From assembly GCA_016206085.1 (NCBI GenBank), contig JACQSF010000009.1:9412-73411 (forward strand): DNA of 64,000 nucleotides. Reading direction: 5' to 3'. Both the position numbers and the translations under genes were made by a program. Within the stretch, counting starts at the first letter, position 1, and each line of letters begins with the position of its first letter. The stretch is from Candidatus Uhrbacteria bacterium. GTDB taxonomy: Bacteria > Patescibacteriota > Patescibacteriia > UBA9934 > GWF2-40-263. The notes below the pieces were generated by a model. The model worked only from the letters and a program-made list of their open reading frames with translations. It had not been told where the DNA came from and searched no databases. This document shows, piece by piece, positions 16,412 through 51,546 of the stretch.

Positions 16412-16443
16412 CGATCCCTCCTTGATATCTGGAAATATAAAGA

Positions 16444-16489: not shown

Positions 16490-16498
16490 CGTTGACTT

Positions 16499-17380
16499 CT
16501 ATGCGAGGATCTGATCGATGAGTGCTTGGACGCGCACGAACACGTCCGTCCCGTGCTGAGGCTGCGATCCGGTGAGCCGGTCCCAGAGACGGAGAATACC
16601 ACCCAAGTGACGCACCAACCCACCCATGGTCTTGTCGGCACCCCAACTAGGCAAAGCTTGCTCGATCTTAGCACGAACATCCTCACCGGGCTTGAACAAG
16701 ATCCGTCGCTCGTCGGCGACCGCGATGTACGGGGACGCCCGCATGCGTTTCGGATCGAGCGTCCGTCCCGCGACCACGTAGGCGAAGGACATGTGCTCGT
16801 CGCAGCGCACGCGGAACTCCCGGTCGTACAGCCGTTCGTCGAAGCCAAGCTCCGACTCGCCCGCCTGGAGGAGCCAGCCGAGCTTCAGACGCACGCTGTG
16901 CGTCTCGCGGTACCAGAGCATGTCCGCGAGCTCGCGGCGCACGTACTCGGCCTTGTCGGTGTGCACGCGCGCGAGGAGCGCCTCGTACTCGTCCGAGCGG
17001 TCGAAGTCACTCGAGAGGCGGACGTCTACCGGGATGTCGGCGGCCCTCGCGATCTTGCCGATCACGTCCCGGTACTCCGCCGCCATGGCCGCGACCACTT
17101 CCGGCGTGCAGAAGGGGTTAGTCAGCGCGTGCGTGTCTGCGATGTGGTGGTAGATGCGGTCGAGCCCCATCAGCCTGCGAAGTCGCTCGGCTCCAAGGAT
17201 GAAGATGAGGATGTCAAACGGAAGCCCGATCGACGGCGAACGCGGGGTGGTCAGACCTGTCCCGTAGTAAACCGATCCGAAGGGTTTCGTGAGAAACGCC
17301 GGATCGATCATGGCGAGCGATGGTTCCGAGTGGAACAGGGGCTCGTTCTGCAAAAAAATCCTGAGTTGATCTTCAGTCAT
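16499..17380 (-). CDS. Hypothetical protein (293 aa) of the island operon
   Basis: Long GC-rich ORF, translationally coupled (ATGA) to the upstream GCS2 gene. No recognisable motif. Confidence 0.5.
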   Translation of the reverse strand: MTEDQLRIFLQNEPLFHSEPSLAMIDPAFLTKPFGSVYYGTGLTTPRSPSIGLPFDILIFILGAERLRRLMGLDRIYHHIADTHALTNPFCTPEVVAAMAAEYRDVIGKIARAADIPVDVRLSSDFDRSDEYEALLARVHTDKAEYVRRELADMLWYRETHSVRLKLGWLLQAGESELGFDERLYDREFRVRCDEHMSFAYVVAGRTLDPKRMRASPYIAVADERRILFKPGEDVRAKIEQALPSWGADKTMGGLVRHLGGILRLWDRLTGSQPQHGTDVFVRVQALIDQILA

Positions 17381-26595: not shown

Positions 26596-27846
26596 TTGCA
26601 GAGGTCCCAACAATCTTCTATGTCCGAGCGTACAAAAAAACTTTTACTCGTTGGCGGATTTATCCTATCCGTATTTGTCATCGCGTTTCTTCTCTACCGA
26701 CTTTTCTTTCAAGCCGCTCCTCCTGAACCGACCGTAGAAGACCAAGTCGAAATTTCAACAGGAATCCTTCCCAGTGCCATCGAGGCAGACCTTCGAGCTC
26801 GCCAGGAAGCGCAACGTGAAGCAGCATCAGGGCGACTTGAAGGGTCAGATGACGTTGCGCGTGGAGGCATCACACAAACAACAGAACTCACAACCGGAGC
26901 GGTCTATCACGTTGTGATCGGGGCTGATGGAACATCGATGAATTACTACAACGCGTCGGACGGTCGGTTCTACACCATCGACAAAGACGGGAATGTCGTT
27001 GCGCTGTCTGATACGCAATTCCCTGATGCAGAAACGGTTGCATGGAACAAAGACTCCAACAAGGCGCTCGTCGAGTTTCCTGATGGTTCAAATATTATTT
27101 ACAACTTTGATACCCAGAAACAGGTGACCCTTCCTGCTCACTGGAAGGATTTTGACTTCTCTCCTGTCTCTGACGAAGTTATCGCAAAATCGATCGCCCT
27201 GGATCCAAACAATCGCTGGCTTGTCGTGACAAGTGACGATGGATCCAAAACAACAAGCATCCAAGCGCTGGGTGAACATGAAGATTCCGTGCAAGTCAAC
27301 TGGTCTCCTAATAACCAAGTCGTTGCTTTCGCTGATACCTCAGATGCCATCCAAGGAGGCGTGGATCGAAATGTCATCTATCCCGTTGGAAAGAATAAAG
27401 AAAATTTCAAAGGATTGGTGGTGGAGGGACTTGGATTTGATTCCCTCTGGTCTCCCAACGGAAAACAATTGCTGTACTCGGTCGCGGGAAGCTACAGCAG
27501 TAACAAGCCGCTCTTATGGATTGTTGATGCGACGTCCGCCACCATGGGAGACAATCGACAGTCCTTGGGGCTGTATACGTGGGTCGATAAATGCACCTGG
27601 AGCTCTGCCTCCGTTGTGTACTGTGCCGTTCCACTTGAACTTCCGGCAAACGCGGGACTCCAACGATCCCTCTACGAAAATGAACCTGACGCCTTGTACA
27701 AACTCAATCTATCGACGGGAACTTCCACCCTCATCGCCATCCCCACAGAAGAAACGTCCATGAACAATCTCCAGGTTTCAGACGATGAATCCGTGATCTA
27801 CTTCACCAACACCTCCGGTCAGCTTGAACTCATGCGACTCAAATAA
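26596..27846 (+). CDS. Hypothetical membrane-anchored protein with beta-propeller-like (TolB/PD40-like) repeats
   Basis: N-terminal TM helix, repeated ..DG.......S..G... segments. Confidence 0.35.
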   Translation: MQRSQQSSMSERTKKLLLVGGFILSVFVIAFLLYRLFFQAAPPEPTVEDQVEISTGILPSAIEADLRARQEAQREAASGRLEGSDDVARGGITQTTELTTGAVYHVVIGADGTSMNYYNASDGRFYTIDKDGNVVALSDTQFPDAETVAWNKDSNKALVEFPDGSNIIYNFDTQKQVTLPAHWKDFDFSPVSDEVIAKSIALDPNNRWLVVTSDDGSKTTSIQALGEHEDSVQVNWSPNNQVVAFADTSDAIQGGVDRNVIYPVGKNKENFKGLVVEGLGFDSLWSPNGKQLLYSVAGSYSSNKPLLWIVDATSATMGDNRQSLGLYTWVDKCTWSSASVVYCAVPLELPANAGLQRSLYENEPDALYKLNLSTGTSTLIAIPTEETSMNNLQVSDDESVIYFTNTSGQLELMRLK

Positions 27847-27848
27847 GT

Positions 27849-28505
27849 ATGGAACACCGATGGTTAGGATTTTTGTCGATTGGCGCGTTGGGTCTGATGG
27901 TCTTTGTCTTTTTTTGGTATCGAAATCAGCCCGTGGAAATCACCATTCCTGAATCAACAGTCGAGGTCGGCTCCATCACCCAACCGACAGTTACGTTTGT
28001 GAACCCAGCAAAGGGCGCGGAAGAACCTACCGTCACGATTGTAGAGTTTGGAGATTTTGAGTGCGAACCGTGTCAAACACTCGCCAGCTCGTTAGAGGTC
28101 TTAGTCAAGACCTTTCCCGATGATGTACAGGTCGTCTGGAAGGACATGCCAAACGAATCCATTCATGAGCTTGCAACACCGGCGGCGATTGCAGCGCATT
28201 GCGCGGATCGACAAGGAGCTTTCTGGACCTATCATGACGCCTTGTTTGATCGCCAAGCCTATTTGAACGAATCTCAATTTACGCAGATCGCCCAAGATCT
28301 CCAGTTGGATGTAGAAAAATTTCAGAGTTGCTACGACGAGCGGGACACACTCCCGATTGTGAAAAAAGACTACGAGGAAGGTCTGGCTCTGGGGATCACA
28401 TCAACACCAACCTTATTTATCGGCGATCAAACGCTTGTCGGAGCCGTGACGACGCAGGATCTCACGACACTGGTAACCGAATTACTACAGGACTCATCTA
28501 AATAG
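27849..28505 (+). CDS. DsbA-like thiol:disulfide oxidoreductase
   Basis: N-terminal TM/signal anchor, CEPC thioredoxin motif in EFGDFECEPCQ. Confidence 0.7.
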   Translation: MEHRWLGFLSIGALGLMVFVFFWYRNQPVEITIPESTVEVGSITQPTVTFVNPAKGAEEPTVTIVEFGDFECEPCQTLASSLEVLVKTFPDDVQVVWKDMPNESIHELATPAAIAAHCADRQGAFWTYHDALFDRQAYLNESQFTQIAQDLQLDVEKFQSCYDERDTLPIVKKDYEEGLALGITSTPTLFIGDQTLVGAVTTQDLTTLVTELLQDSSK

Positions 28506-29817: not shown

Positions 29818-31137
29818 TTGATAATTATGTTCATTTGTACGCATTGTGATGCCCAGTCGTCGAAGTGGTCAGGCAAATGCCTCACCTGCGACAAGTGGGG
29901 GACGATCGTAGAGGAACAAGCCGAACGCAGGCTAAAGCCTGCGGCTACCGGTGCCAAAGCCAAGGCCGCGCAAAGTACGCCCCTGCGAGATGTCATGAAA
30001 CAAAACGAAACCGACAGACTCAGCACGCTGGACGCGGAAGTGGATCGAGTACTTGGCGGCGGGATCGTGAAAGGATCGCTTGTGTTGTTATCTGGTGAGC
30101 CTGGGATTGGAAAATCGACGCTGGTCGCGGCGATCGCAGGTTCAATCAAAGGAAACGTCTTGTACATCTCCGGCGAGGAGTCCCCCACCCAACTGGCAGC
30201 GCGGTTTGAACGACTCAAGAAGAATACAGACTCAGTGCGTTTCCTTGAGCCTTATCCTGTTGAGACATTAGTCGCAACGATGGAAAAAGAGGCGCCCGTC
30301 TTAGCCGTGATCGACTCTGTCCAAACGCTTACCTCTTCAGAACTGGACTCCACCGCCGGGACACCGACGCTTGTCCGCTACGCCACCTCACTCTTGCTTG
30401 ACCTTGCCAAGCGTACAAACGTCTCAATCCTGCTGGTCGGCCAGGTTACGAAGGACGGTTCAATCGCGGGTCCCAAGACACTTGAACATCTTGTCGATGT
30501 CGTTGTGAACCTCGAAGGTGATCCAGTCCACAGCTACCGCATGCTACGCGCGGCTAAAAACCGATTTGGGGCCACGGATGAGATAGGCGTATTTGAAATG
30601 ACCGAGGGTGGACTTGTGGCCGTTGCGAACCCATCCGAAAGATTCCTTGCAGAACGTTCAGCGACTCCTGGATCGGTTATTGCTGCGACGATTGAGGGGT
30701 CTCGCGTATTTCTTGTAGAGGTACAGGCACTCGTTGAAACGGCATTCTATGGAACACCTGTTCGTCGAGCCTCTGGTTTTGATCCAAACCGATTGCAGAT
30801 GCTCGTGGCGATTCTGTCTAAACGAGCGGGATTGAAGCTCGGCGACAAAGATGTATTTGTAAACGTGGTCGGTGGCATGAGTCTCGCTGAACCCGCGGCT
30901 GATCTCGCCATCTGTGCCGCCATCACCGGCGCATTCAAAAACCGCGCAGACGAATCCGCAACGGTGTATATGGGAGAAGTGGGTCTGGGTGGCGAAGTGC
31001 GCTCTGTTCCTCTGGTCGACCGACGACTCATGGAAACATCTCGACTTGGTCTCTCAAACGCCGTCATTCCGTCAAAGTCAAAAGCGAAAAAAGTAGAGCT
31101 CGTCGTGAAACAGGTAGGAAATATTAGCGAACTTTAG
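29818..31137 (+). CDS. radA: DNA repair protein RadA/Sms
   Basis: C4 zinc finger (CTHCDA...CLTCDKW), RecA-like Walker A (SGEPGIGKST), Lon-like C-terminal domain. Confidence 0.9.
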   Translation: MIIMFICTHCDAQSSKWSGKCLTCDKWGTIVEEQAERRLKPAATGAKAKAAQSTPLRDVMKQNETDRLSTLDAEVDRVLGGGIVKGSLVLLSGEPGIGKSTLVAAIAGSIKGNVLYISGEESPTQLAARFERLKKNTDSVRFLEPYPVETLVATMEKEAPVLAVIDSVQTLTSSELDSTAGTPTLVRYATSLLLDLAKRTNVSILLVGQVTKDGSIAGPKTLEHLVDVVVNLEGDPVHSYRMLRAAKNRFGATDEIGVFEMTEGGLVAVANPSERFLAERSATPGSVIAATIEGSRVFLVEVQALVETAFYGTPVRRASGFDPNRLQMLVAILSKRAGLKLGDKDVFVNVVGGMSLAEPAADLAICAAITGAFKNRADESATVYMGEVGLGGEVRSVPLVDRRLMETSRLGLSNAVIPSKSKAKKVELVVKQVGNISEL

Positions 31138-31162
31138 CAAATGGATGCCCACTCAGTGGGTA

Positions 31163-33241
31163 TCACTCCAAATGCACCATTTCAAACTGATGCTCGATTC
31201 GTGCTTTGATCAACGGATGAAAATCGAGGTCAGGATCCTGGACAAGAAGCTCCGTGGCGTAGTCACGGGCTTTTTTCATAATGTCTGTATCGGCCGGCGT
31301 AGCAAGTTGGAAATCGGCAAACCCAGATTGGGCATTTCCGAACACATTTCCAGCTCCGCGAAGCCCAAGGTCGATCTGAGCCAGTCTGAACCCATCGATT
31401 GTTTCCTCCATCGCCCGCAATCGTGCTTCGCTTGTACTCGAAAGTTGCTCAGGGAGAAGATAGCAGTACGATTGGATGTCGCTGCGTCCGACTCGACCGC
31501 GCAATTGATGAAGCTGTGCGAGCCCAAACCGCTCGGCGCCGACGATCACCATGACGCTTGCGTTTGGGATATCAACCCCAACCTCCACGACAGTGGTTGA
31601 GACAAGGACATCGATCTTCCCTGTGCGAAACTTCTCGATTACTTTTTCCTTCTCATCTGTTTTGAGTCGTCCATGAAGCATCTCGATCTTTGCGTCCTTG
31701 AGTGTTCCTTTTTTGAGTTCGCGTGCGACTTCCGCCACGGACTTCACCCCAAGCTTGTCGCTTGGATCAATGAGCGGACACACCACAAAGACCTGTCTTC
31801 CTTGTTCGATCTGCTCGCGGACATGCTTCCACATTCCCGCCTGTTGTGATTCTGGTACAACCGCAGTCGCCAGCGGTTTTCGGCCAGGCGGCATCTCATT
31901 CAAAATCGAAAGCTCGAGGTCGCCAAAGATCGTCAACGCGAGTGTGCGAGGAATCGGTGTCGCACTCATCGAGAGTAGATGTGGGGCAGGCCCCTCATCG
32001 GTGTGCAACAGGGCATGGCGCTGTTCCACGCCAAATCGGTGCTGTTCGTCCACGATCACAAGCCGAAAATCGCTCAATTTTAGACGATCCTGAAGAAGCG
32101 CATGGGTTCCAACAATACATCCGATCCCCCTTCTTTTTAAGGAGGGGCTAGGGGTGGTTAAGAGTTGTAGCGACTCGAGGAGTTCGTCGCGAGTGATGTC
32201 CTTGTCGCCTATCTTGCACATGGTCCGTGTGAGCAGCCCAACAGGTTCATCCAGAAACCGTGATAACGCCGCGTGCTGCTGAGCCGCCAGAATCTCGGTC
32301 GGTGCCAAGTACACAACCCGTGAACCCGCGTGGAGCACACTCGCCGCTGCCGCTGCCGCGACGACCGTCTTTCCGCTTCCCACATCTCCTTCCAACAGTC
32401 GATTCATCGGGTGTGGCTTTTCCAGATCCTGAACAACCTCCCAGATCGCCTTGCGTTGTGCGACTGTAAGCTCAAAAGGCAGACTCGCAACAAACGATTT
32501 GAGGAACGCCTCGTCCAGGTGAATCACGGTTGCGGCCTTTCTTTCTCTGTCTACGCGGACGCGGGCGAACATGAGCTGGTGTAAAAAGAGCTCATCAAAC
32601 TTCAAACGCTGTACCGCCTCATCTAATTCTCGTTGCGACTCAGGAAAATGAACCCCTTGAAGTGCCTGCGCAAGACTTGGATACGATTCGTGTTCAACGA
32701 TGTGGTTCGGAAGCCAATCTGGAAACTCAGCCGCTGCCGGAAGTGCGGCACGCATGGCATCACGCAGCCGACGCATGGTAAGTGAGCCTGTGAGTCCGTA
32801 GACTGGTACGATCCTACCCGTGTGGGTCTGTTCCCCGGCCCGTTCAATGATTGGATTAGTGAGGCATCGTCCGAAGCGACCATCAATACGACCTGCGAGC
32901 GAGACCCTCGATCCAACCAGAAGGGTTTTCTCGAGATACGACTGATTAAACCAAACCACTTTCAACTCTCCTGTTTCGTCGCCTACGACTGCCTCAACAA
33001 TCTTCAAATGTCGGTTCCTTGCCGGTCGTGACTGGATCGACTGAATCGTCCCAGTCACGGTCACCGTGTCCCCGCTTCTGGCCTTCCCTGCCCCAACGAC
33101 ACGAGAAAAGTCGTCATAACGAAATGGCACATACCACAAAAGGTCTCGCACAGACGTAATGTCTAGGCTACGTAAATCCGCCACTGCTTTGGCTCCAAGA
33201 CCAGGTAAGTCAGAAACCGGCGAGCTTAAATGAATGGCCAT
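31163..33241 (-). CDS. recG: ATP-dependent DNA helicase RecG
   Basis: Wedge domain plus SF2 helicase motifs (GSGKT, DEQHRFG). Start at MAIHLSS (33241). Confidence 0.9.
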   Translation of the reverse strand: MAIHLSSPVSDLPGLGAKAVADLRSLDITSVRDLLWYVPFRYDDFSRVVGAGKARSGDTVTVTGTIQSIQSRPARNRHLKIVEAVVGDETGELKVVWFNQSYLEKTLLVGSRVSLAGRIDGRFGRCLTNPIIERAGEQTHTGRIVPVYGLTGSLTMRRLRDAMRAALPAAAEFPDWLPNHIVEHESYPSLAQALQGVHFPESQRELDEAVQRLKFDELFLHQLMFARVRVDRERKAATVIHLDEAFLKSFVASLPFELTVAQRKAIWEVVQDLEKPHPMNRLLEGDVGSGKTVVAAAAAASVLHAGSRVVYLAPTEILAAQQHAALSRFLDEPVGLLTRTMCKIGDKDITRDELLESLQLLTTPSPSLKRRGIGCIVGTHALLQDRLKLSDFRLVIVDEQHRFGVEQRHALLHTDEGPAPHLLSMSATPIPRTLALTIFGDLELSILNEMPPGRKPLATAVVPESQQAGMWKHVREQIEQGRQVFVVCPLIDPSDKLGVKSVAEVARELKKGTLKDAKIEMLHGRLKTDEKEKVIEKFRTGKIDVLVSTTVVEVGVDIPNASVMVIVGAERFGLAQLHQLRGRVGRSDIQSYCYLLPEQLSSTSEARLRAMEETIDGFRLAQIDLGLRGAGNVFGNAQSGFADFQLATPADTDIMKKARDYATELLVQDPDLDFHPLIKARIEHQFEMVHLE

Positions 33242-33295
33242 ATTGAGAAAATAGTAGCACAAACAAAATGACCCCACTTGAGTGGAGTCCTTTTG

Positions 33296-33372
33296 TGGTG
33301 CACCCGGCAGGACTTGAACCTACGACCCTCAGCTCCGCAAGCTGATGCTCTATCCAACTGAGCTACGGGTGC
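33296..33372 (-). tRNA. tRNA-Arg (anticodon read as GCG), CCA encoded
   Basis: Cloverleaf folded by hand: acceptor GCACCCG/CGGGTGC, D-stem GCTC/GAGC, anticodon stem TCAGC/GCTGA with loop TTGCGGA, T-stem GTAGG/CCTGC, 3' CCA. Confidence 0.8.
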
Positions 33373-33378
33373 AAAAGC

Positions 33379-33876
33379 TCAGAGTTTATACAGTCTTCGG
33401 AGCACATCCGTCAAGTTCTCTTCCACCCGCTGTAAGTTCTCCAAACAGTAAGGAAGAAGCAGCTCACGCACCTCATTTGGATCGATATCCTCAAGTGGGA
33501 CGGTCAGAAGTGGTTGCCAAGGAGAGTGGAACTCAAAGTAGAGATTCTTTACCTGTGGTGGGTCGTAGGCAATCGAAAAATCTTTAATGGCTTGGAAATC
33601 ATAGTACATGTCCGAGACAACCACGCCCGTATTGGTGATCACAACCGGGACACGGTCAGGGGGCACAAAACTCGACAACAGCGTGATCACGCCGATCATA
33701 AGGATGATGACGGCAAACAAAAAATTCGCTGTCGCGATGGCATAGATGATGAGCGCCACACCAAGAACGGCTGCGATTATGTACCAAAGCCGTGAGCGCT
33801 GGTGCATCGGATACTCATTCACCTCCCACTCAAGCTGCGGGGCACCGATATTGATTTGTCCTTCCTCTTGCTCCAT
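33379..33876 (-). CDS. Hypothetical membrane protein
   Basis: 165 aa with two TM helices. Confidence 0.4.
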   Translation of the reverse strand: MEQEEGQINIGAPQLEWEVNEYPMHQRSRLWYIIAAVLGVALIIYAIATANFLFAVIILMIGVITLLSSFVPPDRVPVVITNTGVVVSDMYYDFQAIKDFSIAYDPPQVKNLYFEFHSPWQPLLTVPLEDIDPNEVRELLLPYCLENLQRVEENLTDVLRRLYKL

Positions 33877-34016
33877 AGCCCTTCTATTTTATCACGATCC
33901 AGAACTTAATTCACGAATTTTGTCCTCAAGCTCGGGGAAAAACCCATCGTTTCATACGGTCTATTATCCTTGATCTTTTGAATATCTTCCAGTATTCTAT
34001 CCCCGTAATTGAATAC

Positions 34017-34105
34017 GGAGAGGTACCCAAGTGGTTGAAGGGGACGGTTTGCTAAATCGTTAGGGGCGAAAGCCCGCGAGGGTTCGAATCCCTCCCTCTC
34101 CGCCA
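34017..34105 (+). tRNA. tRNA-Ser (anticodon GCU), long variable arm, CCA encoded
   Basis: GGAGAGGTACCCAAGTGG..., anticodon loop TTGCTAA, long variable arm, 3' CCA. Confidence 0.85.
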
Positions 34106-34131
34106 GTAGACATTTACATACATTTTATATT

Positions 34132-34220
34132 GGAGAGGTGGCCGAGTGGTTGAAGGCAACAGTCTTGAAAACTGTCGAGGTGAATAGCCTCCGTGAGTTC
34201 GAATCTCACCCTCTCCGCCA
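34132..34220 (+). tRNA. tRNA-Ser (anticodon UGA), long variable arm, CCA encoded
   Basis: GGAGAGGTGGCCGAGTGG..., anticodon loop CTTGAAA, long variable arm, 3' CCA. Confidence 0.85.
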
Positions 34221-34252
34221 CAAAAACACCGCCTCGTGCGATGTTTTTGTTT

Positions 34253-34951
34253 TTACGAACTCCCCTTAGCCAAGGTAAACCCCCACACAGTCTTGGCGCC
34301 GTTCTCTTTCAGCAATCGCGCGACTGCGTCCATCGTGGTGCCGCTGGTGAAAACGTCATCACATAAGAGAACATGCCCTGGCACACTCATTCCTGGCGCA
34401 ATCTCAAAGACATGATCCATCTCCCCCACCCGACGCTGACCATGGAACGTCCGTGACTGTTGGGCGGTTTTTTTCGCTCGACGCACAAGCATCTCCACTG
34501 GAAGTCCAAACAGCTCCCCGACCCACGTCGCGACGAGTTGAGCCTGATCGAACCCACGAGATCGAAGACGCGACTCATGCAAGGGCACATGTGTCACCCA
34601 ATACGGGGCGAGCGGTGGCTGCATCCTGGGTGCGGCGCGGCGCAAACTTTTCACAAACACGTCTTCGACGGATCTATCGCCATGGAACTTCCAACTTGCG
34701 ATGAGCTCACGCATGAGTGCGTTTCCATATGGAACAAAATACGTCAGCCCGTCGAGGTACCGATCCTCGCAGCACTCTGTGCAGGTTCGCGGTGATCCAC
34801 CCCGTCCACAAAATGCACAAGACACCTGTGGGGGCACAGGTGTCCAGAAGTCTAGACACGGTCGGCACAGAAGCGCTCCCTCGCGCTTGCATGAAACGCA
34901 AAATCGCGGGAACAGCGCCTCTATTGCCAGATCGCAGAGTCGACTTTCCAT
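34253..34951 (-). CDS. comFC: Competence protein ComFC (phosphoribosyltransferase-domain protein)
   Basis: N-terminal Cys4 zinc-finger region. C-terminal PRTase motif VLLCDDVFTSGTT. Confidence 0.8.
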   Translation of the reverse strand: MESRLCDLAIEALFPRFCVSCKREGALLCRPCLDFWTPVPPQVSCAFCGRGGSPRTCTECCEDRYLDGLTYFVPYGNALMRELIASWKFHGDRSVEDVFVKSLRRAAPRMQPPLAPYWVTHVPLHESRLRSRGFDQAQLVATWVGELFGLPVEMLVRRAKKTAQQSRTFHGQRRVGEMDHVFEIAPGMSVPGHVLLCDDVFTSGTTMDAVARLLKENGAKTVWGFTLAKGSS

Positions 34952-35502
34952 GTGTCTACCTCCTTCACAAAAGTTAAGATGATGTCCTGGTACTTTACCG
35001 TCACGTTTTGGGTCGATCCAATCGCTTCTTCACGCTGAGTCGTAACCGTCACCAAAGCCGTGCCTGCCGTCTCATCTTCTTGTTGAACCTTCACGGTCAC
35101 AATGCTTGTGGTCACGCCATAGTATTCCTCGGGTGCCTTCTGGGTATCAACAATGTTTTGAAGCTGTGCGGCAAATGAGGCACTCGTCAGTGGAATCACG
35201 TCTGCAAGGTTGGCAAAATGTGCCTCATTTGAATAACTCCCATACCGTGTCACAAATGACTTAGAAAGGGAAACAACTTCCGCGGACGTCGTGCGCGTTT
35301 CCCGTTCTTCCTCCAACTCCTGCTCGGAAATTGTGGGTCGCGTCGGGAGAACCTCTTGTCCCTGCGGCGCCTGCACCACCTCTTCCACTTGCGGCTCCTC
35401 TTCGCCCCCAGAAAAAAGGATCCACAAAAACCAGATCAACAACAAGAAAAGAGCCAAGAGAATAAGGGCAATAATCGTCAATCGTTTTCTTCGAGTCATC
35501 AT
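34921..35502 (-). CDS. Hypothetical membrane-anchored protein
   Basis: N-terminal TM helix, acidic linker. ATGA-coupled to upstream virB4. Confidence 0.4.
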   Translation of the reverse strand: MMTRRKRLTIIALILLALFLLLIWFLWILFSGGEEEPQVEEVVQAPQGQEVLPTRPTISEQELEEERETRTTSAEVVSLSKSFVTRYGSYSNEAHFANLADVIPLTSASFAAQLQNIVDTQKAPEEYYGVTTSIVTVKVQQEDETAGTALVTVTTQREEAIGSTQNVTVKYQDIILTFVKEVDTWKVDSAIWQ

Positions 35503-37505
35503 ACAAAAAGCGAGTCACGAATCTTCTCTGCCTGCGCTTTCCCCTGCGTCTGGTTTGCAAGGACACTTGCCGTCGCGTTTGCCTGCTGAGCTTCTTCTTG
35601 AACCTGCTGCGCCGCAACCGACGCTTCCTTCTTCACCCGTTCCTGTTCAAGAAGCTGTTGGGGATTCGTTGTCACGATTTGATCTTCCGTATAAGACGCA
35701 ACGACTTTAATAGCCGCATGCTTGTTTCCAGCAAAGAAAATTCCTTCGCCCACGCCCGACTCAAGTAATAAGTATTTTTCTCCGTCGGTAAGGTGAAATG
35801 TATTTTGCACAACGTCCACGGCCGAGGGAGCTTGCTTCAAAAGAATCTGCATGGCCGAGTTGGTCACAATCGCCTGACCATATTGACTCCGCAGAAAGTC
35901 GTTCACGTCCTGGGTGATGGTGGTAACCCCCAAATAATATTTTCGCGCACGTTTTACCAGAGCAAAAATAAACTTCGCGGAGTCCTCATTTTGCATGAGC
36001 CACCATGCCTCATCCACAACCAGGATGCGCTTCTTGCGCTCACTGCGTGTCACGTTCCAAATGTAGTTGATGATCGTATAGATGGCCGTAGGACGTAACT
36101 CATCTTCCAAATCTCGCACCGAAAATACCACAAGTTGATTCTTCATCTCAACGTTGGTCGGTGAATCGAGAAGTCCAGAAAATGTGCCATTGGTATACTT
36201 CTGAAGTCGCGCCACAAGATCCGCGGAGCCATCCATCCCTTCCAAAACGTCTTGAAAATCTGTCAGAGTCGGCGGTTCCACATCCGCAAGACTCAATAGG
36301 TCTGGGGTGATGTCTTTCTTCGCGTACGTTTCAATGAGAGCTCGATCCAAAAGTGAATCCTCCTCAGGAGTAAACCCAAGCTTCCCCCCCTCACCAATGG
36401 GCTGGCCGATCATGATACGCAATAACCCTTTGAGCGTAATAACGGCGGACCGAATAATATCATCCACCTTCGTGCCCTCGCCAATCCCGCGAGGCAAATC
36501 AAACGGGTTGACCTTCGCTTCTGACGCAAGTGAAACATTGATGAATGTTCCACCGACGGCATCGGACAAATCCTTGTACTCGTACTCCGGATCAATGACA
36601 ATCACGTCCGTTCCCATCATGAGGGAGCGCAAGATCTCAAGCTTAATGGCGTAGGACTTTCCCGCTCCGGAAGTCGCAAACACCACGGAGTTCGCGTTTT
36701 GCAAACTGAATCGATCAAACAAAATGAGCGAATTATTGTGGCGGTTGATGCCGTAGAGAATGCCGTTGTCAGACGTCAGATCAGAACTAATAAACGGGAA
36801 CGATGCCGCAATCGGACTTGTGTTCATGTTATACGAAATCTGAAGTTCGTCGTTTCCTAATGGGGTGGTCGAATTGAAACCCTGTTCGGCCTGATAAAAG
36901 CCACTCTTGGTATAGATGAGCTTGCTGCCAAACAATGACTCGACTTCTTCTGTGTACTTCTCAAGTTCCTGTTCGTTCTTAGCGTAGATCGTAACGTAGA
37001 ACGAAAATTGAAAAAAATGTTCAATCCCTTGCGTAAGCGCATCTCGAAGAGATTCGGTGTCCCGCAGAGCCGTTTCAGCAATCGGATCGCGCGGGGCTCC
37101 CTTCTCCGCGTCCCCCAAAATCTTCGCTTCAAAAATTCCGACTTTCTTTTGGAGCTGCTTTAAAATAATTCTGGCCTTGAGCGGATAGAAAAACATCCCC
37201 ACATCAAATGTCTTGTTGAGATTAATGAGGGCAGAGGACCAGCCAAGACCAATATGACGGGGGTACGTGATGATAAACAGTGTCCGAACATAGAGCCCGG
37301 AAAGCAACAAAAACGTCGGCTTCACCTCAAATGAGGCAGGAGCAATAATATCCTTTACCGTGACAACTCCACGCCGATAAATGCGTTCCTCCTCCAAGAC
37401 CTCCCGCTCCTGGCGCGTCTTTACCACTTCCTCGTTGATCTTCTGTGGCTTTTCAGGCGCCGGCATGGGCATGGCCTGTTTTATTTTTCTTATCTCAATG
37501 GCCAT
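35499..37505 (-). CDS. virB4: VirB4/TraC-type type-IV secretion/conjugation ATPase
   Basis: Walker A FATSGAGKS, Walker B ILVVDEAWW, length 668 aa. Confidence 0.8.
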   Translation of the reverse strand: MAIEIRKIKQAMPMPAPEKPQKINEEVVKTRQEREVLEEERIYRRGVVTVKDIIAPASFEVKPTFLLLSGLYVRTLFIITYPRHIGLGWSSALINLNKTFDVGMFFYPLKARIILKQLQKKVGIFEAKILGDAEKGAPRDPIAETALRDTESLRDALTQGIEHFFQFSFYVTIYAKNEQELEKYTEEVESLFGSKLIYTKSGFYQAEQGFNSTTPLGNDELQISYNMNTSPIAASFPFISSDLTSDNGILYGINRHNNSLILFDRFSLQNANSVVFATSGAGKSYAIKLEILRSLMMGTDVIVIDPEYEYKDLSDAVGGTFINVSLASEAKVNPFDLPRGIGEGTKVDDIIRSAVITLKGLLRIMIGQPIGEGGKLGFTPEEDSLLDRALIETYAKKDITPDLLSLADVEPPTLTDFQDVLEGMDGSADLVARLQKYTNGTFSGLLDSPTNVEMKNQLVVFSVRDLEDELRPTAIYTIINYIWNVTRSERKKRILVVDEAWWLMQNEDSAKFIFALVKRARKYYLGVTTITQDVNDFLRSQYGQAIVTNSAMQILLKQAPSAVDVVQNTFHLTDGEKYLLLESGVGEGIFFAGNKHAAIKVVASYTEDQIVTTNPQQLLEQERVKKEASVAAQQVQEEAQQANATASVLANQTQGKAQAEKIRDSLFV

Positions 37506-37507
37506 AC

Positions 37508-38206
37508 CTATTTTTCAGAAACGAATGATGATTCTTCAAACTGTACCTGACGTATATCCACAAGCTTCTGTGTATCAAACACATTGGGATTATAGACCGT
37601 ATAATAGAGTTCAATGAGTCCTTGGGTATCCAAACGTGCGGAAGAAAGACCCATACTATTGAGTTGCCCTTGAGTGATTTCAAGTCGACGAGAGAGCTGT
37701 TCCATGCGATCCGCCAGCTGTTTCTTGTTCAGTTTAGCAGCCGCCGCTGGAGAAAGGGCTTCGGTGAATCTTGTCCAAAAATTTTTCTTCTTGTTTGTGA
37801 GCGGGTCGTATGGCACAACAAGATAAAACATTTTCTGCATGATCTGACCTAGCTCGACTAACTCCGTTACGAACGCCCGATAATCGAAAATCTGATTACG
37901 CAGAAGGTCATTTTCCACGACTCGTTCGCGTTCACGCAATCGATTCATATACGCATCAATATTCATGCGGCGTGACTGAATCACAATCTGGATGGGATAC
38001 GCCAGGGAATTCAGAAACGTCATGTAGGCCTGAATGATGGCTTCCTGTTCGTCCGCGGATTTAAGCGCGAAGTTAATGCTTGAAACCAAAAGCACGGCGC
38101 GCACCGTCCCGTCATTGAGAAGTACCATGTCATCACGAATCTCGGCGATGTCCAAAAATCGTTCCGTTGATGATCCTGGTTTTGGCTTGGCAAGTTTATG
38201 GGCCAT
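37508..38206 (-). CDS. Hypothetical protein in the T4SS-like operon
   Basis: ORF directly upstream of virB4. Start uncertain (MAHKL...). Confidence 0.4.
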   Translation of the reverse strand: MAHKLAKPKPGSSTERFLDIAEIRDDMVLLNDGTVRAVLLVSSINFALKSADEQEAIIQAYMTFLNSLAYPIQIVIQSRRMNIDAYMNRLRERERVVENDLLRNQIFDYRAFVTELVELGQIMQKMFYLVVPYDPLTNKKKNFWTRFTEALSPAAAAKLNKKQLADRMEQLSRRLEITQGQLNSMGLSSARLDTQGLIELYYTVYNPNVFDTQKLVDIRQVQFEESSFVSEK

Positions 38207-38639
38207 ACGATTCCTCGGGCTTGTACACACCGCCGGTATTCACGACGAGCGTCAATTCTTGCAAACGAGACGTGCCAGCAAAGGTTTTTCGGATATAGGG
38301 CGTGGAGGGTGATGGCAAAGAAGTTTTCATGAGCTCTTTGAGTTCCCTATCCGTATATTCTCGACTCCAGACCCGCAGTCGTGGCTTCTTCAATGTCTGG
38401 ATGAGATTCAAGAAAAAATAATGAAACGGAGCGCCGTTGATCCTCAGAAAGGCGACCGTTCCGCCCACCGCGAACAACGGAATCCCCAAAAGAAGAAACT
38501 GAACAAATGGGAGGAGTCGAAACAAGATGAACTCGACCAAAAAAACCACCATAAGAATAATAAACTGCCTCGCTGTGATGGGGCCGAAAATTTTGTCCTC
38601 TGCGTCGATGAATTGTGGCACTACGAATTGGTCGGGCAT
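38196..38639 (-). CDS. Small two-TM membrane protein (possibly VirB3/PrgI-like)
   Basis: Real start taken at MPDQFVVPQF... The first 27 residues of the listed ORF read through the palindromic repeat. Two hydrophobic helices. Confidence 0.4.
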   Translation of the reverse strand: MPDQFVVPQFIDAEDKIFGPITARQFIILMVVFLVEFILFRLLPFVQFLLLGIPLFAVGGTVAFLRINGAPFHYFFLNLIQTLKKPRLRVWSREYTDRELKELMKTSLPSPSTPYIRKTFAGTSRLQELTLVVNTGGVYKPEESYGP

Positions 38640-38720
38640 AAGCTCAGAGATGAGACTATACGGAAGAAAATTTCTTGGCCCGACTTTGCCAGCAAGAAAT
38701 TTTCTTCCGTATAGTCTCAT
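38640..38720. repeat. Intercistronic palindromic element, copy 2 (21-bp perfect arms flanking GGCCCGACTTTGCCAGC)
   Basis: ctatacggaagaaaatttctt-ggcccgactttgccagc-aagaaattttcttccgtatag. Same core as 8518-8590 with compensatory arm changes. Confidence 0.6.
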
Positions 38721-38732
38721 CTCTGTAGTGTA

Positions 38733-40043
38733 TCAGAAACGCAGGTCGGCGTTTAACTTCATCACCGCCTTGAGCTCTTCATCAGAAAGCGTTTCCTCTC
38801 CTGCTGTCCGTTTCTTCCCCAAAACCTCGGCCACCGGAATTCCCGTCAACACAGCCTCTCGCGTAATCCCGACGTACATTTGGTTCAACGGAGAACTTCG
38901 CCACGCCTGAACGGCTTCCACTTTCTTTTCATATCCCTGTTCTTCCATGAGATCGACTTTATCTTTCACCTTTGTCGCTGCCTGAGTCGGATCTTTGGAG
39001 AGACGATGGAAGTCTGTGAGCGTCAGCGACCGCAACTCATCAATAGGACCAGAGAGACGTTTTTCAAATGTGACTTCCTGCATGCTTGCAACCGTCTTGG
39101 GTCGTGGTTCCGTGCTCGTCTCTCGCGCGGCCATGACTGCATCCTTCACTTTGGAGGCATCGATTTTCCCCTCACGTGAGAGCTGTTCATGATGAGCCGA
39201 GATGGCCACGCTTGTGCGTGAGACAGATGGCGCAACGGGCGCGACATGTTCTCCCGGAACTTTTCCGGTGAGCTCGACGTAGCGCTTTGTGAGAAGTGTT
39301 TCTTCATTCTTTGCAAGTTCTCCCTTGTCTGGAATAGCCGCGAGCTTCTCAACCCTTTTGCGCTGTTCCTCTTGATTCACGTTCCCTTGAAAGGCCGAGA
39401 TGCGTCCCTCGATCATGGCCAGCATGTCTGAGAGTCGGCGACCTGTGACGCCCAATCCACCACTCTCGACAGCCTTTTCAAGCTGAGCCCGTGTCTGCTC
39501 CGGTGTACGGACATCACGTACTCGCGACTCGATGAGCTTCGCACAGCGTTCTTGTAACTGCGCGTCCTCAAACGTAAACATTGGGTTCGTACAGATTTCT
39601 TTGATGATTTCCGGGATGTCGAGTGGTCCCTTCGTCTCAAGAATGGAGGACTTCTCTTGAGCGATACTCGCCGCTTCGGCTTCTTCCTTTGAAAAATCTG
39701 GCTCAACGGAAATCCCTGGATTCCCTTTTAGCTCAAAAAGTGAAAACGGCAGATCATTCTGAAGCGGAGTCAGAACACGCTCGACAACCCCCCTTACGAT
39801 CTGCTTGGCAACATCCTGCGTCACGCGAAATTCGGATAGGATCACCCCAACAAAATCCTGAGGCTCAAGAACACGACTCACAAGGCGCATCACATAGAAC
39901 CCCAGAAGAGATTCATCCGCATCCTTCAAGCCAGCCTGAGACAAAATTTCACTGTATGTCTCATACGTGGATTCCTGCTGCAACGCAGCATCAACCCGTT
40001 CTTCTTGGGCTTGCTGTGGTGTGGATTGAGAAACCTCCGCCAT
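38733..40043 (-). CDS. Hypothetical soluble protein in the T4SS-like operon
   Basis: 436 aa, charged/helical, no TM segment. Confidence 0.4.
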   Translation of the reverse strand: MAEVSQSTPQQAQEERVDAALQQESTYETYSEILSQAGLKDADESLLGFYVMRLVSRVLEPQDFVGVILSEFRVTQDVAKQIVRGVVERVLTPLQNDLPFSLFELKGNPGISVEPDFSKEEAEAASIAQEKSSILETKGPLDIPEIIKEICTNPMFTFEDAQLQERCAKLIESRVRDVRTPEQTRAQLEKAVESGGLGVTGRRLSDMLAMIEGRISAFQGNVNQEEQRKRVEKLAAIPDKGELAKNEETLLTKRYVELTGKVPGEHVAPVAPSVSRTSVAISAHHEQLSREGKIDASKVKDAVMAARETSTEPRPKTVASMQEVTFEKRLSGPIDELRSLTLTDFHRLSKDPTQAATKVKDKVDLMEEQGYEKKVEAVQAWRSSPLNQMYVGITREAVLTGIPVAEVLGKKRTAGEETLSDEELKAVMKLNADLRF

Positions 40044-40046
40044 ACA

Positions 40047-42815
40047 CTATGTTGTTCGCTTGTTTCGCTCTTGTACCAATCGTACCCTTGTCTTTTCCAA
40101 TCGATCTGCCTGTTCCTGAAGTTCTTGGAGTCGTCGACTCTTTTCCTTCGCCGCCTCAAGGCCGGCTTTGCCACCAGCATCATCAATCATCTTCTTTACC
40201 TCGGCCTCAAGCGACGTAATATCTGGACTTCCCTTCATCTCTTCATCCCCTTCCTGTACGACCTTGTCATAGGATGCCTGGAACTTATCTAGTTCTTTTT
40301 GTGCACGAGCAATTTCATTCGCATTTCCTTTTTGTTGCGCAACGGCCAAATTCTTTCGTGCTCTTCGTAATGGCTGGTAGGCTTGCTTACGATCACCTTC
40401 AACAGACTGCTGGATTCTCTTACGAACATCCGCGATCTGCTTCTCTTTATCCGCAATCGTCTTTTCAACCCCTCTGAGTGCCTGAACCTCACCCTCAAGT
40501 GCGGCCACCGCTCCTTGGGCAGCGGTCTTCTCAGATTCGATCTGACTCATGGCTGCATCAATACGCTCACCACTGGACTGGCCGAAATTCTCATCGACAT
40601 AGGTATCAGCCCCTTGTCCGGCAGCTGGAGCTGGAGGCAAGCCAAAGCCTGCTTGTGTTTCCATCGCTGTTCGTGCCGTATCAAAGGCTGTAAGTGAATC
40701 AACAGCCGTCGCATTTCCACCCTTACCCATCTTGTCAGCCGCCGCACGCATACGATCCATCGAGAGCGCCATCTTTTGACGATCTTGGTCAGAAGTTCCA
40801 GCATCCGTGTATTTTGCACGCATCTGCGCGATGACCGCGTCTGCGCTGTCCCTATCATTCATTTGCAGAGCCGCTTCAAATTGTCCTTCCACCTGCGTTC
40901 CAATGTCGAGCTTCGTGACATCCGTTCCCTTCACAGCCGCCTGTTGTGCCTCTATCCCATAATGACCTGCGCGTGCGGCTTCCAGAGCGTTGAGATTCTT
41001 CCCGTCCTTATCCCTAAACGTCGTCCTGATACCAGCGGCACGCCCTTGAACAGCCGAGTCTTCCCAGGCTCCTGCGGCAAGAGCCTTTGTATCATCGGCA
41101 TCCTTAATCCTATCTGTCGAACCAGTAATGTGTGCGTATTTCTTTTTGAAGCTATCAAGCTCAGCCGTCTTGGCAACATTCCCGTTGGACATCTCTGTAT
41201 AGCCTTTTCCTTGAATCGCCCAAAGCTTCTTCATCGCCTCTGGATCTTTCCTCAAAAGATCTTTTTGGAGTCGGCCATCGGCCATCGTCTCTTCAAACAA
41301 TGCGGCCATCTTGTCCTTTCCGGCTTGCGTCTTAGGAGGACTCTTGAGCATGGCTTCAAGCTGACCCTGCTTCCAGTTGCGGTCTTTGTTTTTCATGGCC
41401 TCCTTCTCTTTGTTTACACCGTCAAACTTTGTCGCACGAATCCCTTGTTGAATATCCGCTTGTTTGCCTTTAAAAAAACGACCTATAGCGCCCTCACCCG
41501 CCATATCGGCAACTCGACCAGCCACCGCCGCCTTAGCTCGTGAAGGAATGTTCTGAAAGGCTGCAGGGGCTGGTGGGAGGTATCGAGAAGCTGCTGCAGC
41601 GGCTCCAGGTGTACCAGCAATAGCGCGACCACCAAGTCGTGCTACATATCCACCAGCTTTCAAACCCACGCCAGCCCCAAACCTCGCGACTTTCTCAGGA
41701 CTGAAGGCTTTTGCTGTTTCTAAACGCTTGCCAATAAATCCACCCGCTATTCCCGCGCTACAAAATTGCGATGCGGCCTTAAAACCCGCAAACAACATTC
41801 CCATGCCAATGAGAAAACTCAGAAAGTTGTTCACTTCCAACCAAGAAGCCGTAAAATCGGCATTGTTCGAATTCGCGCTTACGTCAAAGCCTGAATTGGC
41901 CGCAATGTTTCCCGCCCCGGCAACGGCAAGAGTGAGCCATAAGAAAAAAGTAAGAACCGGCCCGATGCCGACAAGACACTTAAACTCTTTCCACCAATCT
42001 TCATACGCATTGGAGTCAATAATGCCTTTGGCTCCCTTCATAAACCACGCCAGAGGGGCGATCACAACCAGCACCCACAACATGATAATGCGAAAGAGTA
42101 AAATCGAAACCAAAATAAGGAGTGTCGCAAAAACCCAAATAGTCAATAAAACAGACAGAACGGCTGAACCAAAAAAATCAAACGCTTGCGAAGCCCCTTG
42201 GGCATTCACCTGCTCAACCCCATCAATAACTGAGCTTGCTTGACTCACTTGATATATTTTATTCAAACCCAACAATTGAATAAAGTTTCCAGCCGCAATC
42301 TCGCGAAGTGCATTGGCGAACGTCAACATGATGACTTGCCCAAAATCAATCATGATGCCGCAAAGGGTTTTAGAAAAATTCACGACGATGGCCATGACCA
42401 GAAGTCTTGGAACTTGCTGCTGCCACTTAAACCGTTCACTTCCAAAAATCGTACCAAACGCGATGATGATCAAGATGACCACAAAAAACATATTCACCGT
42501 GTCGCGCACGATCGCCCACCCGGCTCTCACCACCGGGTTCCCGACAAAATTGTTGTAGGTCATGATCGGTACCATCACATCGATAAGCAAAACGATCCCT
42601 TGCGTAATGGCAGCCGCTATCGTGAAGGCAATGTAGGCAAAACTTTGAACAATACTCTCCACCCATAATGGAGCGGCGTGAACGGGAGTCGGATGCAACA
42701 GCAACGAAAAAACAAACACAATAATTCCAACACGGGCTCGTTTGGTTACGAGATTCTTCGTGCGACTCGAAAGCCACGATTTGAGCGCGAGCAATCGAAG
42801 GACAATCCAAGGCAT
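40047..42815 (-). CDS. VirB6/TrbL-like polytopic membrane protein with long C-terminal coiled-coil/charged region
   Basis: Signal/TM followed by 6-7 TM helices, then about 500 aa Ala/Lys/Glu-rich coiled-coil. Sits first in the operon with virB4. Confidence 0.5.
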   Translation of the reverse strand: MPWIVLRLLALKSWLSSRTKNLVTKRARVGIIVFVFSLLLHPTPVHAAPLWVESIVQSFAYIAFTIAAAITQGIVLLIDVMVPIMTYNNFVGNPVVRAGWAIVRDTVNMFFVVILIIIAFGTIFGSERFKWQQQVPRLLVMAIVVNFSKTLCGIMIDFGQVIMLTFANALREIAAGNFIQLLGLNKIYQVSQASSVIDGVEQVNAQGASQAFDFFGSAVLSVLLTIWVFATLLILVSILLFRIIMLWVLVVIAPLAWFMKGAKGIIDSNAYEDWWKEFKCLVGIGPVLTFFLWLTLAVAGAGNIAANSGFDVSANSNNADFTASWLEVNNFLSFLIGMGMLFAGFKAASQFCSAGIAGGFIGKRLETAKAFSPEKVARFGAGVGLKAGGYVARLGGRAIAGTPGAAAAASRYLPPAPAAFQNIPSRAKAAVAGRVADMAGEGAIGRFFKGKQADIQQGIRATKFDGVNKEKEAMKNKDRNWKQGQLEAMLKSPPKTQAGKDKMAALFEETMADGRLQKDLLRKDPEAMKKLWAIQGKGYTEMSNGNVAKTAELDSFKKKYAHITGSTDRIKDADDTKALAAGAWEDSAVQGRAAGIRTTFRDKDGKNLNALEAARAGHYGIEAQQAAVKGTDVTKLDIGTQVEGQFEAALQMNDRDSADAVIAQMRAKYTDAGTSDQDRQKMALSMDRMRAAADKMGKGGNATAVDSLTAFDTARTAMETQAGFGLPPAPAAGQGADTYVDENFGQSSGERIDAAMSQIESEKTAAQGAVAALEGEVQALRGVEKTIADKEKQIADVRKRIQQSVEGDRKQAYQPLRRARKNLAVAQQKGNANEIARAQKELDKFQASYDKVVQEGDEEMKGSPDITSLEAEVKKMIDDAGGKAGLEAAKEKSRRLQELQEQADRLEKTRVRLVQERNKRTT

Positions 42816-42962
42816 AACTGATGAAAGTATAGCATGAAAATGGCCTTCTGCCGCTGATAAATGGGGATAAGAAACTTTGAATTACGAAACAAGATCGCGA
42901 ATTTTATAATTCAAGATAAGAAAAACCCTCAACCGTATGTCAAGGGTCTGTATCGTGGTCGC

Positions 42963-51021: not shown

Positions 51022-51546
51022 ATGGCACAAAACCAAAAATCCAATAAGGTAACCCAAGAAATCATCGATACACTGGTCGAAGCTAGCGACCTTACTATCG
51101 AGTGGATGAACAACCCGTACAAACAATACAGACGGATTCGAGGAATCATGGAGCCGGAAGAGTGGGATCAAATCTTTCGAGAGAAAAAGAAACGTCGGGC
51201 TCTGAAAGAACTCAAACGCAAGAAATGGCTTACTGAGCGACGGGAAGGGAACCAAATCGTTTTTGAATTAGCAGAATCAGTCGCCATCCAACGTCTTAAA
51301 ACAATGATCCGATCAACGATTGCCGTCCTACCGGAACCATCGATTATTTTAGTAGCGTTTGATTTTCCTGAAGCGGCGAGAAAGGCCCGCGACTCGTTTC
51401 GATTTTTTCTGAAATCGGTCGGTTTCGGACAGAAACAGCTCAGCGTCTGGTTCTCCAACAAATCTATTCTTGATGAAATGCAGGCTCTGGTTCGTATACT
51501 CAAGATTGAAAAGTGGGTTAACATTTACCTCACGAGCGGAACATAA
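51022..51546 (+). CDS. Hypothetical small protein, possibly a wHTH-type regulator (PaaX-like)
   Basis: 174 aa, basic/helical N-terminal half, conserved-looking C-terminal SIILVAFDFPE...GFGQKQLSVWFS. No His residues, so not a HUH transposase. Confidence 0.3.
   Translation: MAQNQKSNKVTQEIIDTLVEASDLTIEWMNNPYKQYRRIRGIMEPEEWDQIFREKKKRRALKELKRKKWLTERREGNQIVFELAESVAIQRLKTMIRSTIAVLPEPSIILVAFDFPEAARKARDSFRFFLKSVGFGQKQLSVWFSNKSILDEMQALVRILKIEKWVNIYLTSGT

Follow-up and report, generated by a model that had tools for sequence, protein, structure and literature searches.

comF as a member of a relaxase-less type IV secretion operon in a Candidatus Uhrbacteria genome

Seven genes on the minus strand of a 64,000-nt stretch of DNA from Candidatus Uhrbacteria encode the core of a type IV secretion system (T4SS) and end with the transformation gene comF. 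The stretch (hereafter the window) covers positions 9,412 to 73,411 of the forward strand of contig JACQSF010000009.1 (assembly GCA_016206085.1). Uhrbacteria lie within the GTDB class ABY1, and thus the source genome is a Patescibacterium of ABY1; a Candidatus Uhrbacteria protein (locus tag HY626_01655) matches a 193-amino-acid (aa) protein of the operon at 100% identity. On the sequence, the locus is almost certainly a chromosomal, relaxase-less T4SS of the Patescibacteria clade, derived from Gram-positive conjugation machinery (MPF-FATA). comF is predicted to be a true member of this operon, and the balance tips slightly towards a link between the two that is functional and not accidental. 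Both the T4SS and its association with comF, recG and radA were published in 2025, so that in this respect our analysis is a rediscovery. What is added here is the VirB8 fold of one operon protein, the retention of comF in 70/70 related loci while the flanks decay, the adjacency of dprA in some relatives, a hairpin inside comF and the large family to which a 436-aa operon protein belongs.

The operon and its products

The seven genes form a single tightly packed run from 42815 to 34253 in the map of open reading frames (ORFs; Table 1). This map and the translations agree with the gene order, strands and coordinates given in an earlier reading of the same DNA, made from the letters alone (hereafter the sequence-only reading). 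The tight spacing with overlapping stops and starts described there is equally borne out, with genes spaced 2-3 nt apart or overlapping by 4 and 31 nt. In the direction of transcription, the 922-aa and 436-aa genes are 3 nt apart, and 93 nt lie between the 436-aa gene and the revised start of the PrgI gene (ATG 38639). The PrgI gene overlaps the 240-aa gene, which is followed after 2 nt by the VirB4 gene; VirB4 and the 193-aa gene then overlap by 4 nt (ATGA), and the 193-aa gene and comF by 31 nt. Since comF starts inside the 193-aa (VirB8-like) gene, there is no intergenic room for a separate promoter or terminator. The sequence-only reading had held that it would fail if a promoter or terminator split comF from virB4; the frames are found to overlap, and the only intergenic terminator stands after comF.

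Terminator-like hairpins with U tracts are found on both sides of the run. The one directly 3' of the comF stop is the predicted operon end, and the one 3' of the upstream M23 peptidase gene is predicted to separate that gene from the T4SS operon, such that 42815-34253 constitutes one putative transcription unit. A candidate extended -10 promoter ends 10 nt 5' of the ATG of the first operon gene, and from this position we infer a possibly near-leaderless transcript for the T4SS operon. In inserts carried by several related loci (see below), TATACT-like motifs also lie directly 5' of start codons, which likewise hints at near-leaderless transcripts.

The VirB4 ATPase scores 334.4 bits against NF045971 (curated cutoff 325) over model positions 173-730 of 752, and also matches PF19044 (E 4e-27), PF12846 and PF01935. 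It is without the N-terminal domain, and PrgJ of plasmid pCF10 aligns to it from PrgJ residue 221 (identity ~25%). The missing domain is predicted to be supplied by the 240-aa ORF immediately upstream. That is, the 240-aa protein matches the NCBIfam model VirB4_plasma at positions 99-240 (E 1.3e-9), the VirB4 model PRK13853 at positions 10-172 and, weakly, TrsD (E 2.8e-5, under the TrsD cutoff), and its orthologues carry the TraC-like domain PF26593. The split between TrsD and VirB4 is natural and not a frameshift, because the two are separate ORFs in 77/77 related genomes. Directly upstream again lies a PrgI/VirB3-like protein, recognized by PF12666 with 37.5 bits (cutoff 27, E 3.5e-9). Its start is most likely ATG 38639, since orthologues align only from residue 28 of the mechanically called ORF.

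The 193-aa protein combines an N-terminal transmembrane (TM) helix with an NTF2-like domain. Its AlphaFold2 (AF2) model (predicted local distance difference test score, pLDDT, 87) has four helices on a four-stranded curved sheet, and the top Foldseek hits in PDB are TrwG/VirB8 of R388, the VirB8 domain of pCF10 PrgL, CagV and TraE (E 1e-4 to 1e-3, probability 1.0). At the level of sequence, PF04335 (VirB8) is matched by 3/46 orthologues; a profile of the family against PDB sequences gave nothing useful, and hhalign against PrgL was not significant. The model thus points to a VirB8 fold, although the NTF2 fold also occurs in non-T4SS proteins and the genomic context therefore counts too.

The first gene of the operon encodes a 922-aa protein with at least six hydrophobic/TM segments in the first ~300 aa, followed by a hydrophilic tail of ~550 aa rich in A/K/G/D/E (hydropathy). 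This layout matches the 'extended VirB6' described in PMC12857230, and the gene holds the position that PrgH has relative to PrgI and PrgJ in pCF10. TrbL/VirB6 (PF04610) is matched by 2/47 orthologues (best E 1.2e-5), and one homologue has a precomputed PF19590 match. The protein itself matched nothing in Pfam, NCBIfam or PDB, hhalign of the VirB6-like profile against pCF10 PrgH was not significant, a profile search of the N-terminal family against PDB sequences returned nothing useful and ten further VirB6-like homologues had no Pfam matches. The VirB6 assignment is probable and reasonable, yet the weakest of the set. Altogether, of the three folds that the sequence-only reading had proposed to look for, VirB3 is recovered by PF12666 and VirB8 by AF2/Foldseek, and VirB6 only in part: topology, position and the few orthologue matches speak for it, its own sequence and the comparison with PrgH do not.

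Between VirB6 and VirB3 lies a 436-aa protein without a TM segment (hydropathy). It has no match in Pfam, NCBIfam or PDB, including a search of the family profile against PDB sequences. The AF2 model is an all-helical, multi-domain structure (pLDDT 79, predicted template-modelling score 0.29) with no Foldseek match in PDB. The protein is a member of a large unannotated family (4339 cluster representatives at E<=1e-3), whose conserved core is the C-terminal ~110 residues; ten long members searched against Pfam had no domain.

The last gene encodes a ComF-type protein, which aligns full-length to TIGR00201 (E 3.2e-21, 76 bits, below the curated cutoff of 233) and to GntX (E 1.4e-16), and matches PF00156 above cutoff. 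Its sequence holds two CxxC...CxxC zinc-finger motifs and a phosphoribosyltransferase domain with the phosphoribosyl pyrophosphate (PRPP) loop VLLCDDVFTSGTT. There was no match among PDB sequences.

Table 1. Features of the locus in window coordinates, with the number of related loci that share them (counted over loci with enough sequence)
Feature	Position	Strand	Basis or description	Related loci
Membrane-anchored beta-propeller protein (416 aa) and DsbA-like thiol oxidoreductase (218 aa; 27849-28505)	26596-28505	+		
Secreted VirB2-like pilin two-TM module fused to NlpC/P60 peptidase, 424 aa	28510-29784	+	PF18895, PF00877	
RadA/Sms	29818-31137	+	Zn-ribbon, KaiC-like ATPase and Lon_C/ChlI domains; last gene of convergent operon	16/35 (within 10 kb of VirB4)
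RecG helicase	31163-33277	-	RecG_wedge (E 1.9e-24), DEAD, Helicase_C, RecG_dom3_C	22/35 (within 10 kb of VirB4)
tRNA-Arg(GCG), tRNA-Ser(GCT), tRNA-Ser(TGA)	33296-34220	-, +, +		
Two-TM bPH-like ORF, 165 aa	33379-33876	-		
Terminator-like hairpin with U tract, directly 3' of comF stop	34220-34250	-	-17.2 kcal/mol, z -4.3	
ComF(C)-type protein, 232 aa	34253-34951	-	TIGR00201, GntX, PF00156	70/70 (directly after core)
11-bp GC-rich hairpin inside comF	34820-34845	-	76 nt past VirB8-like stop; top terminator-like hit of the region	
VirB8-like protein, 193 aa	34921-35502	-	AF2/Foldseek	74/76
VirB4 ATPase, CD1110/MPF-FATA type, without N-terminal domain, 668 aa	35499-37505	-	NF045971	
TrsD/TraC-like free-standing homologue of the VirB4 N-terminal domain, 240 aa	37508-38230	-	NCBIfam, Pfam of orthologues	77/77 (always a separate ORF adjacent to VirB4)
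PrgI/VirB3-like protein, ~147 aa	38196-38639 (mechanical ORF to 38720, 174 aa)	-	PF12666	77/77
Palindromic intergenic element	38645-38725		33-bp perfect arms 38645-38677 and 38693-38725, 15-nt loop	
Conserved cytoplasmic all-helical protein, 436 aa	38733-40043	-	Fold without known relative; family specific to this operon type	70/70
Extended VirB6-like polytopic membrane protein, 922 aa	40047-42815	-	Topology, position, weak orthologue matches	53/53
Candidate extended -10 promoter, TGcTATACT	42826-42834	-	Read from the sequence itself; missed by sigma-70 scan	
Terminator-like hairpin with U tract, 3' of M23 gene	42923-42949	-	-15 kcal/mol, z -3.7	
M23 peptidoglycan peptidase, 652 aa	42963-44921	-	PF01551 (E 7.9e-14)	36/48 (upstream of operon)

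Persistence of comF in related loci

The relatives come from a scan with one genome per species, which gave 80 loci (VirB4 identity 69-92%), nearly all from Uhrbacteria or Patescibacteria metagenome-assembled genomes. The core genes are retained almost throughout (Table 1), and comF directly follows the core in every locus that could be scored. The overlap between the VirB8-like gene and comF is conserved as well (-31 nt in many loci, median -11.5). In particular, the linkage of comF outlasts the synteny of the flanks (SerRS is kept in just 17/48 loci), while ComF identity falls to ~26%.

The other genes of DNA metabolism are less tightly bound to the locus. Between comF and recG, relatives carry inserts that encode Fur/Znu, Cu-ATPase, YcaO, CysRS and TOTE. 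ComEC or other competence genes were considered as candidates in these inserts and rejected, the insert genes being unrelated to competence. In one subclade dprA lies divergent to the VirB6-like gene at ~250 nt (L053 3008-3850, L055 3057-3908, L057 3124-3990 and L058 2912-3772); in a more distant locus, L084 (VirB4 identity 70%), comF is kept and dprA (2043-2930) is 4 kb away. This neighbour goes unmentioned in the text of the 2025 survey (PMC12102498). Taken together, these loci indicate that comF has long been an integral part of this clade's operon, with recG, radA and dprA as recurrent but looser neighbours.

A second feature of comF is found within the gene itself, where an 11-bp GC-rich stem is followed by a U-rich stretch UUGUGCAUUUUGUGG. 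Compensatory substitutions, including non-synonymous ones, preserve the stem in the nearest relatives. Paired cells make up 93.6% of the total, as opposed to 36-52% after sliding of the partner; in nine cells both sides have changed, and none of 500 shuffles (0/500) reaches the observed value. The hairpin was rejected as a feature of all relatives, as it is confined to the nearest subclade and absent in more distant relatives. Within that subclade it may be an attenuator of read-through into comF, or else a stabiliser of the 3' end of the T4SS message, and could in this way determine how much comF transcript is made relative to that of the T4SS genes.

Surroundings of the operon

The neighbours named in the sequence-only reading (radA, recG, three tRNA genes and the genes for the NlpC/P60 and DsbA proteins) are all present where it had placed them. 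Its statement that no pilin is visible was wrong, however. The 424-aa NlpC/P60 protein, encoded ~6 kb from virB4, contains a T4SS_pilin domain (PF18895, 30.1 bits, cutoff 26.6) at residues 148-210, besides the peptidase domain (PF00877, 27.6 bits, above cutoff). The pilin domain coincides with the two TM segments of the protein (154-172 and 193-211), and the hydrolase would thus be anchored by a VirB2-like hairpin. The beta-propeller and DsbA genes are co-directional with the pilin-hydrolase gene, and relatives share these neighbours. In the distant locus L083 the pilin module is fused to M23 instead of NlpC/P60 (18224-19543), and the beta-propeller and pilin-hydrolase genes lie directly 3' of the T4SS core. 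This arrangement implies that the plus-strand operon (beta-propeller, DsbA, pilin-NlpC/P60 and radA) belongs to the T4SS system, and suggests that pilin-anchored wall hydrolases are a recurring design in such systems. The M23 peptidase upstream of the operon is likewise a candidate wall-remodelling accessory. Beyond these genes, the locus is embedded among housekeeping genes (ClpB, SerRS, tRNAs and KsgA); RecA was not found near it.

The sequence-only reading had also pointed to a hairpin element within the operon. This element exists, and its perfect inverted repeat of 33 bp sits at the junction of the 436-aa and PrgI genes (-60.6 kcal/mol, z -12). A second copy lies at the pheS/pheT junction (8524-8598), with the same 15-nt loop CTGGCAAAGYCGRGC and inner stem, and both copies have the same orientation relative to transcription. 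Most relatives have just 5-30 nt at the 436-aa/PrgI junction. The palindrome was therefore rejected as a conserved regulatory element of the T4SS, being missing at this site in most relatives and present in a second copy at an unrelated operon junction. It has no match in Rfam and no exact match in a metagenome scan. Relatives, among them L002, L007, L021, L027, L031, L032, L044, L062 and L069, carry their own genome-specific long palindromes at T4SS-operon junctions. These differ in sequence at the same junctions, often occur in several copies per locus and lie between stop and start codons (e.g. L002 8713-8860; L007 8712-8863; L031 1535-1742, 2171-2342 and 3036-3205). From their placement, the palindromes look like small dispersed repeats that come to lie in the gaps of packed operons, after one gene's stop codon and before the next gene's start.

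Elsewhere in the window, a GC-rich block at 12900-19300 (60-66% compared with ~50% elsewhere) is possibly horizontally acquired; it holds an integrase-core fragment (rve_3, 12936-13283), YchF, a class-I glutamine amidotransferase, an enolase-superfamily protein and a GCS2-like ligase. A giant minus-strand ORF of 3321 aa (52495-62460) has no Pfam match at E<=0.001, and the ORF next to it (62463-63176) carries a bacterial TSP3 repeat. Finally, a 174-aa protein with a PaaX central Cas2-like domain is encoded at 51022-51546, and a PIN-domain protein at 9679-10140, between pheS and an RseP-like M50 protease.

Possible roles and comparison with known systems

The reading that we favour ties the activity of the T4SS to the handling of incoming DNA. 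A translocon across the single membrane would be built from VirB6, VirB3 and VirB8, with TrsD and VirB4 supplying the energy, and would act at contact with the host bacterium. The hydrolases would breach the wall, and a surface fibre may be contributed by the VirB2-like module. ComFC is known to bind single-stranded DNA (ssDNA) and to join transport to recombination (PMC9005727). As a selected member of the operon, ComF would be produced at a set ratio to the channel proteins, owing to the overlapping frames. This co-production with the translocon would allow T4SS action and the processing of incoming ssDNA (by ComF, then DprA/RecA, RadA and RecG), whether that DNA enters through the T4SS channel itself or through ComEC, to be coordinated within a single programme of host exploitation. 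Recurrent neighbours, namely recG, radA and, in one subclade, dprA, lend weight to the link to DNA processing, and the ABY1-specific welding of comF to the operon, together with dprA, argues that both processes are tied in ABY1. The Patescibacteria are a very large, host-dependent group whose T4SS is the first shown to be essential for its bearer, and no other genomic hint that nucleic acids are involved in this T4SS is as strong as the ABY1 arrangement.

Several observations weigh against such a link. In Southlakia epibionticum, the one Patescibacterium studied by genetics, the T4SS genes (SEML1_0006-0019) proved essential for epibiotic growth, while comEC, comF and dprA did not score as fitness genes (Wang et al. 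2023, PMC10633639). What the T4SS must do in that organism can thus be done without ComF. Outside ABY1, comF is not a typical T4SS neighbour (PMC12102498). A lineage more distant than the 80 loci, L083 (VirB4 identity 63%), is without comF in the operon, with recG still adjoining it. The unrelated genes inserted between comF and recG make the proximity of recG and radA a loose one, and the hairpin inside comF could end part of the transcripts before comF. The VirB6 homology of the VirB6-like protein itself is weak, as noted above. Most of these points would fit a T4SS that moves protein or other cargo during host interaction, with comF a passenger co-transcribed through genome compaction, its expression perhaps uncoupled by the hairpin, and recG, radA and the tRNAs ordinary neighbours in a region of housekeeping genes. 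We consider this rather unlikely. It leaves unaccounted for the retention of comF beyond that of SerRS, even where ComF itself has diverged, the conserved overlap of the VirB8-like stop and the comF start, and the fact that a second transformation gene, dprA, independently came to adjoin the same operon.

The same evidence can also be read in a stronger sense, in which the T4SS itself is the importer. Here, host or environmental ssDNA would enter the cytoplasm in a contact-dependent manner through the VirB6/VirB3/VirB8/VirB4 channel, the co-translated ComF would receive it in place of a coupling protein, the 436-aa protein would be a possible adaptor, and DprA, RecA, RadA and RecG would process the strand. 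The translational coupling of comF to the VirB8-like gene, the varied arrangements in which dprA, radA and recG recur, the lack of a relaxase or type IV coupling protein (T4CP) in our searches and the precedents for T4SS-based DNA import, ComB and Ced (PMC12857230, PMC12102498), are consistent with this. On the other hand, ComFC works with ComEC in every studied system (PMC9005727, PMC12663950). S. epibionticum requires comEC for transformation, and its T4SS is essential irrespective of the com genes (PMC10633639; points repeated in the 2025 T4SS review PMC12857230). Moreover, the operon has no recognisable ssDNA-binding or nuclease component, and the likeness of VirB4 to CedB is generic P-loop similarity. 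For the ABY1 T4SS a role as a DNA-import channel is therefore doubtful, and we would call it unlikely for the locus at hand. If it were true, however, passage of DNA through the T4SS channel would be a new way for bacteria to acquire DNA, a bacterial equivalent of the archaeal Ced system that crosses a single membrane and works either without ComEC or alongside it. Such a route could account for how epibionts that are auxotrophic for nucleotides obtain nucleic acids. The DNA-import reading proposed from the sequence alone accordingly stands as far as the T4SS core and the place of comF in the operon are concerned; the idea is not new, and the likeness to ComB is conceptual only.

DNA export to recipients by an integrated plasmid or integrative and conjugative element (ICE) is far less probable still, and we regard it as very improbable. 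VirB4 does belong to the CD1110 conjugation family, and the gene order parallels PrgH-PrgI-PrgJ...PrgL of pCF10. Yet domain searches of every ORF of at least 90 aa across the 64 kb found no relaxase, VirD4 or comEC domains, in agreement with the sequence-only reading as to relaxase and VirD4; tblastn with PcfC and PcfG of pCF10 gave no match in the window, which is a weak test. There is no integrase next to the locus and no element repeat boundary in the 64 kb. The GC content at the locus (~0.47-0.53) is like that of the flanks, with no compositional island, and 80 species-level genomes have the locus at this same chromosomal place amid core genes. Across the phylum, relaxases were found near virB4 in 15 cases only (PMC12102498). 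It is the lack of a relaxase or T4CP nearby, together with the setting among housekeeping genes, that makes a classic conjugative element unlikely.

Among known systems, the Gram-positive conjugation modules of pCF10 (PrgH-PrgI-PrgJ-PrgK-PrgL) and pGO1 (TrsD/TrsE) share with our locus the order VirB6-like, VirB3, VirB4, VirB8-like, a CD1110-type VirB4, a separate TrsD-like N-domain protein, a wall hydrolase of the NlpC/P60 or CHAP type and the lack of an outer-membrane core. The locus differs in having no coupling protein, relaxase, adhesins or plasmid/ICE backbone, and in adding a VirB2-like pilin module, ComF and the 436-aa protein. The ComB system of Helicobacter pylori, to which the sequence-only reading had likened the locus, is also a T4SS without VirD4, VirB11 or relaxase that is tied to natural-transformation genes, and H. 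pylori requires ComFC downstream of ComB. The analogy holds as a concept and no further: ComB, an MPF-T system of a diderm, has VirB7/9/10 and takes double-stranded DNA no further than the periplasm, and comFC lies outside the comB operons, whereas our locus is of the MPF-FATA type and monoderm in architecture, with no homologues of VirB7, VirB9 or VirB10 in the window. With the archaeal Ced system the locus shares, in concept, a VirB6-like membrane protein and a VirB4/HerA-like ATPase, with DNA import across a single membrane and no relaxase. The match to the CedB model is however 44.8 bits against a cutoff of 700, and that to CedD 20.8 against 600, both over the P-loop region only; there are no CedA homologues here, and Ced belongs to another domain of life.

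The closest counterpart is the T4SS described in the Patescibacteria survey of Quinonero-Coronel et al. (2025, PMC12102498). These authors found a monophyletic VirB4 clade related to MPF-FATA, in which TrsD is the most abundant partner and PrgI/VirB3, VirB6 and VirB2-like pilins are also present. VirB8 homologues are almost confined to ABY1, and T4CP genes usually lie elsewhere in the genome. They also reported the co-localisation of the T4SS with comF, recG and radA in ABY1 and stated a possible functional coordination. Our locus shares with this clade a chromosomal position, the MPF-FATA-related VirB4 with its adjacent TrsD, PrgI/VirB3, a putative VirB6-like protein, the PF18895 pilin domain, peptidase/hydrolase neighbours and the lack of a relaxase or nearby T4CP. 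With the ABY1 members in particular, it shares a detectable VirB8 homologue and the presence of comF, recG and radA in the locus. Here the pilin module is fused to NlpC/P60 and is not part of an array of small pilins; there is otherwise no essential difference between the locus and the T4SS of this clade.

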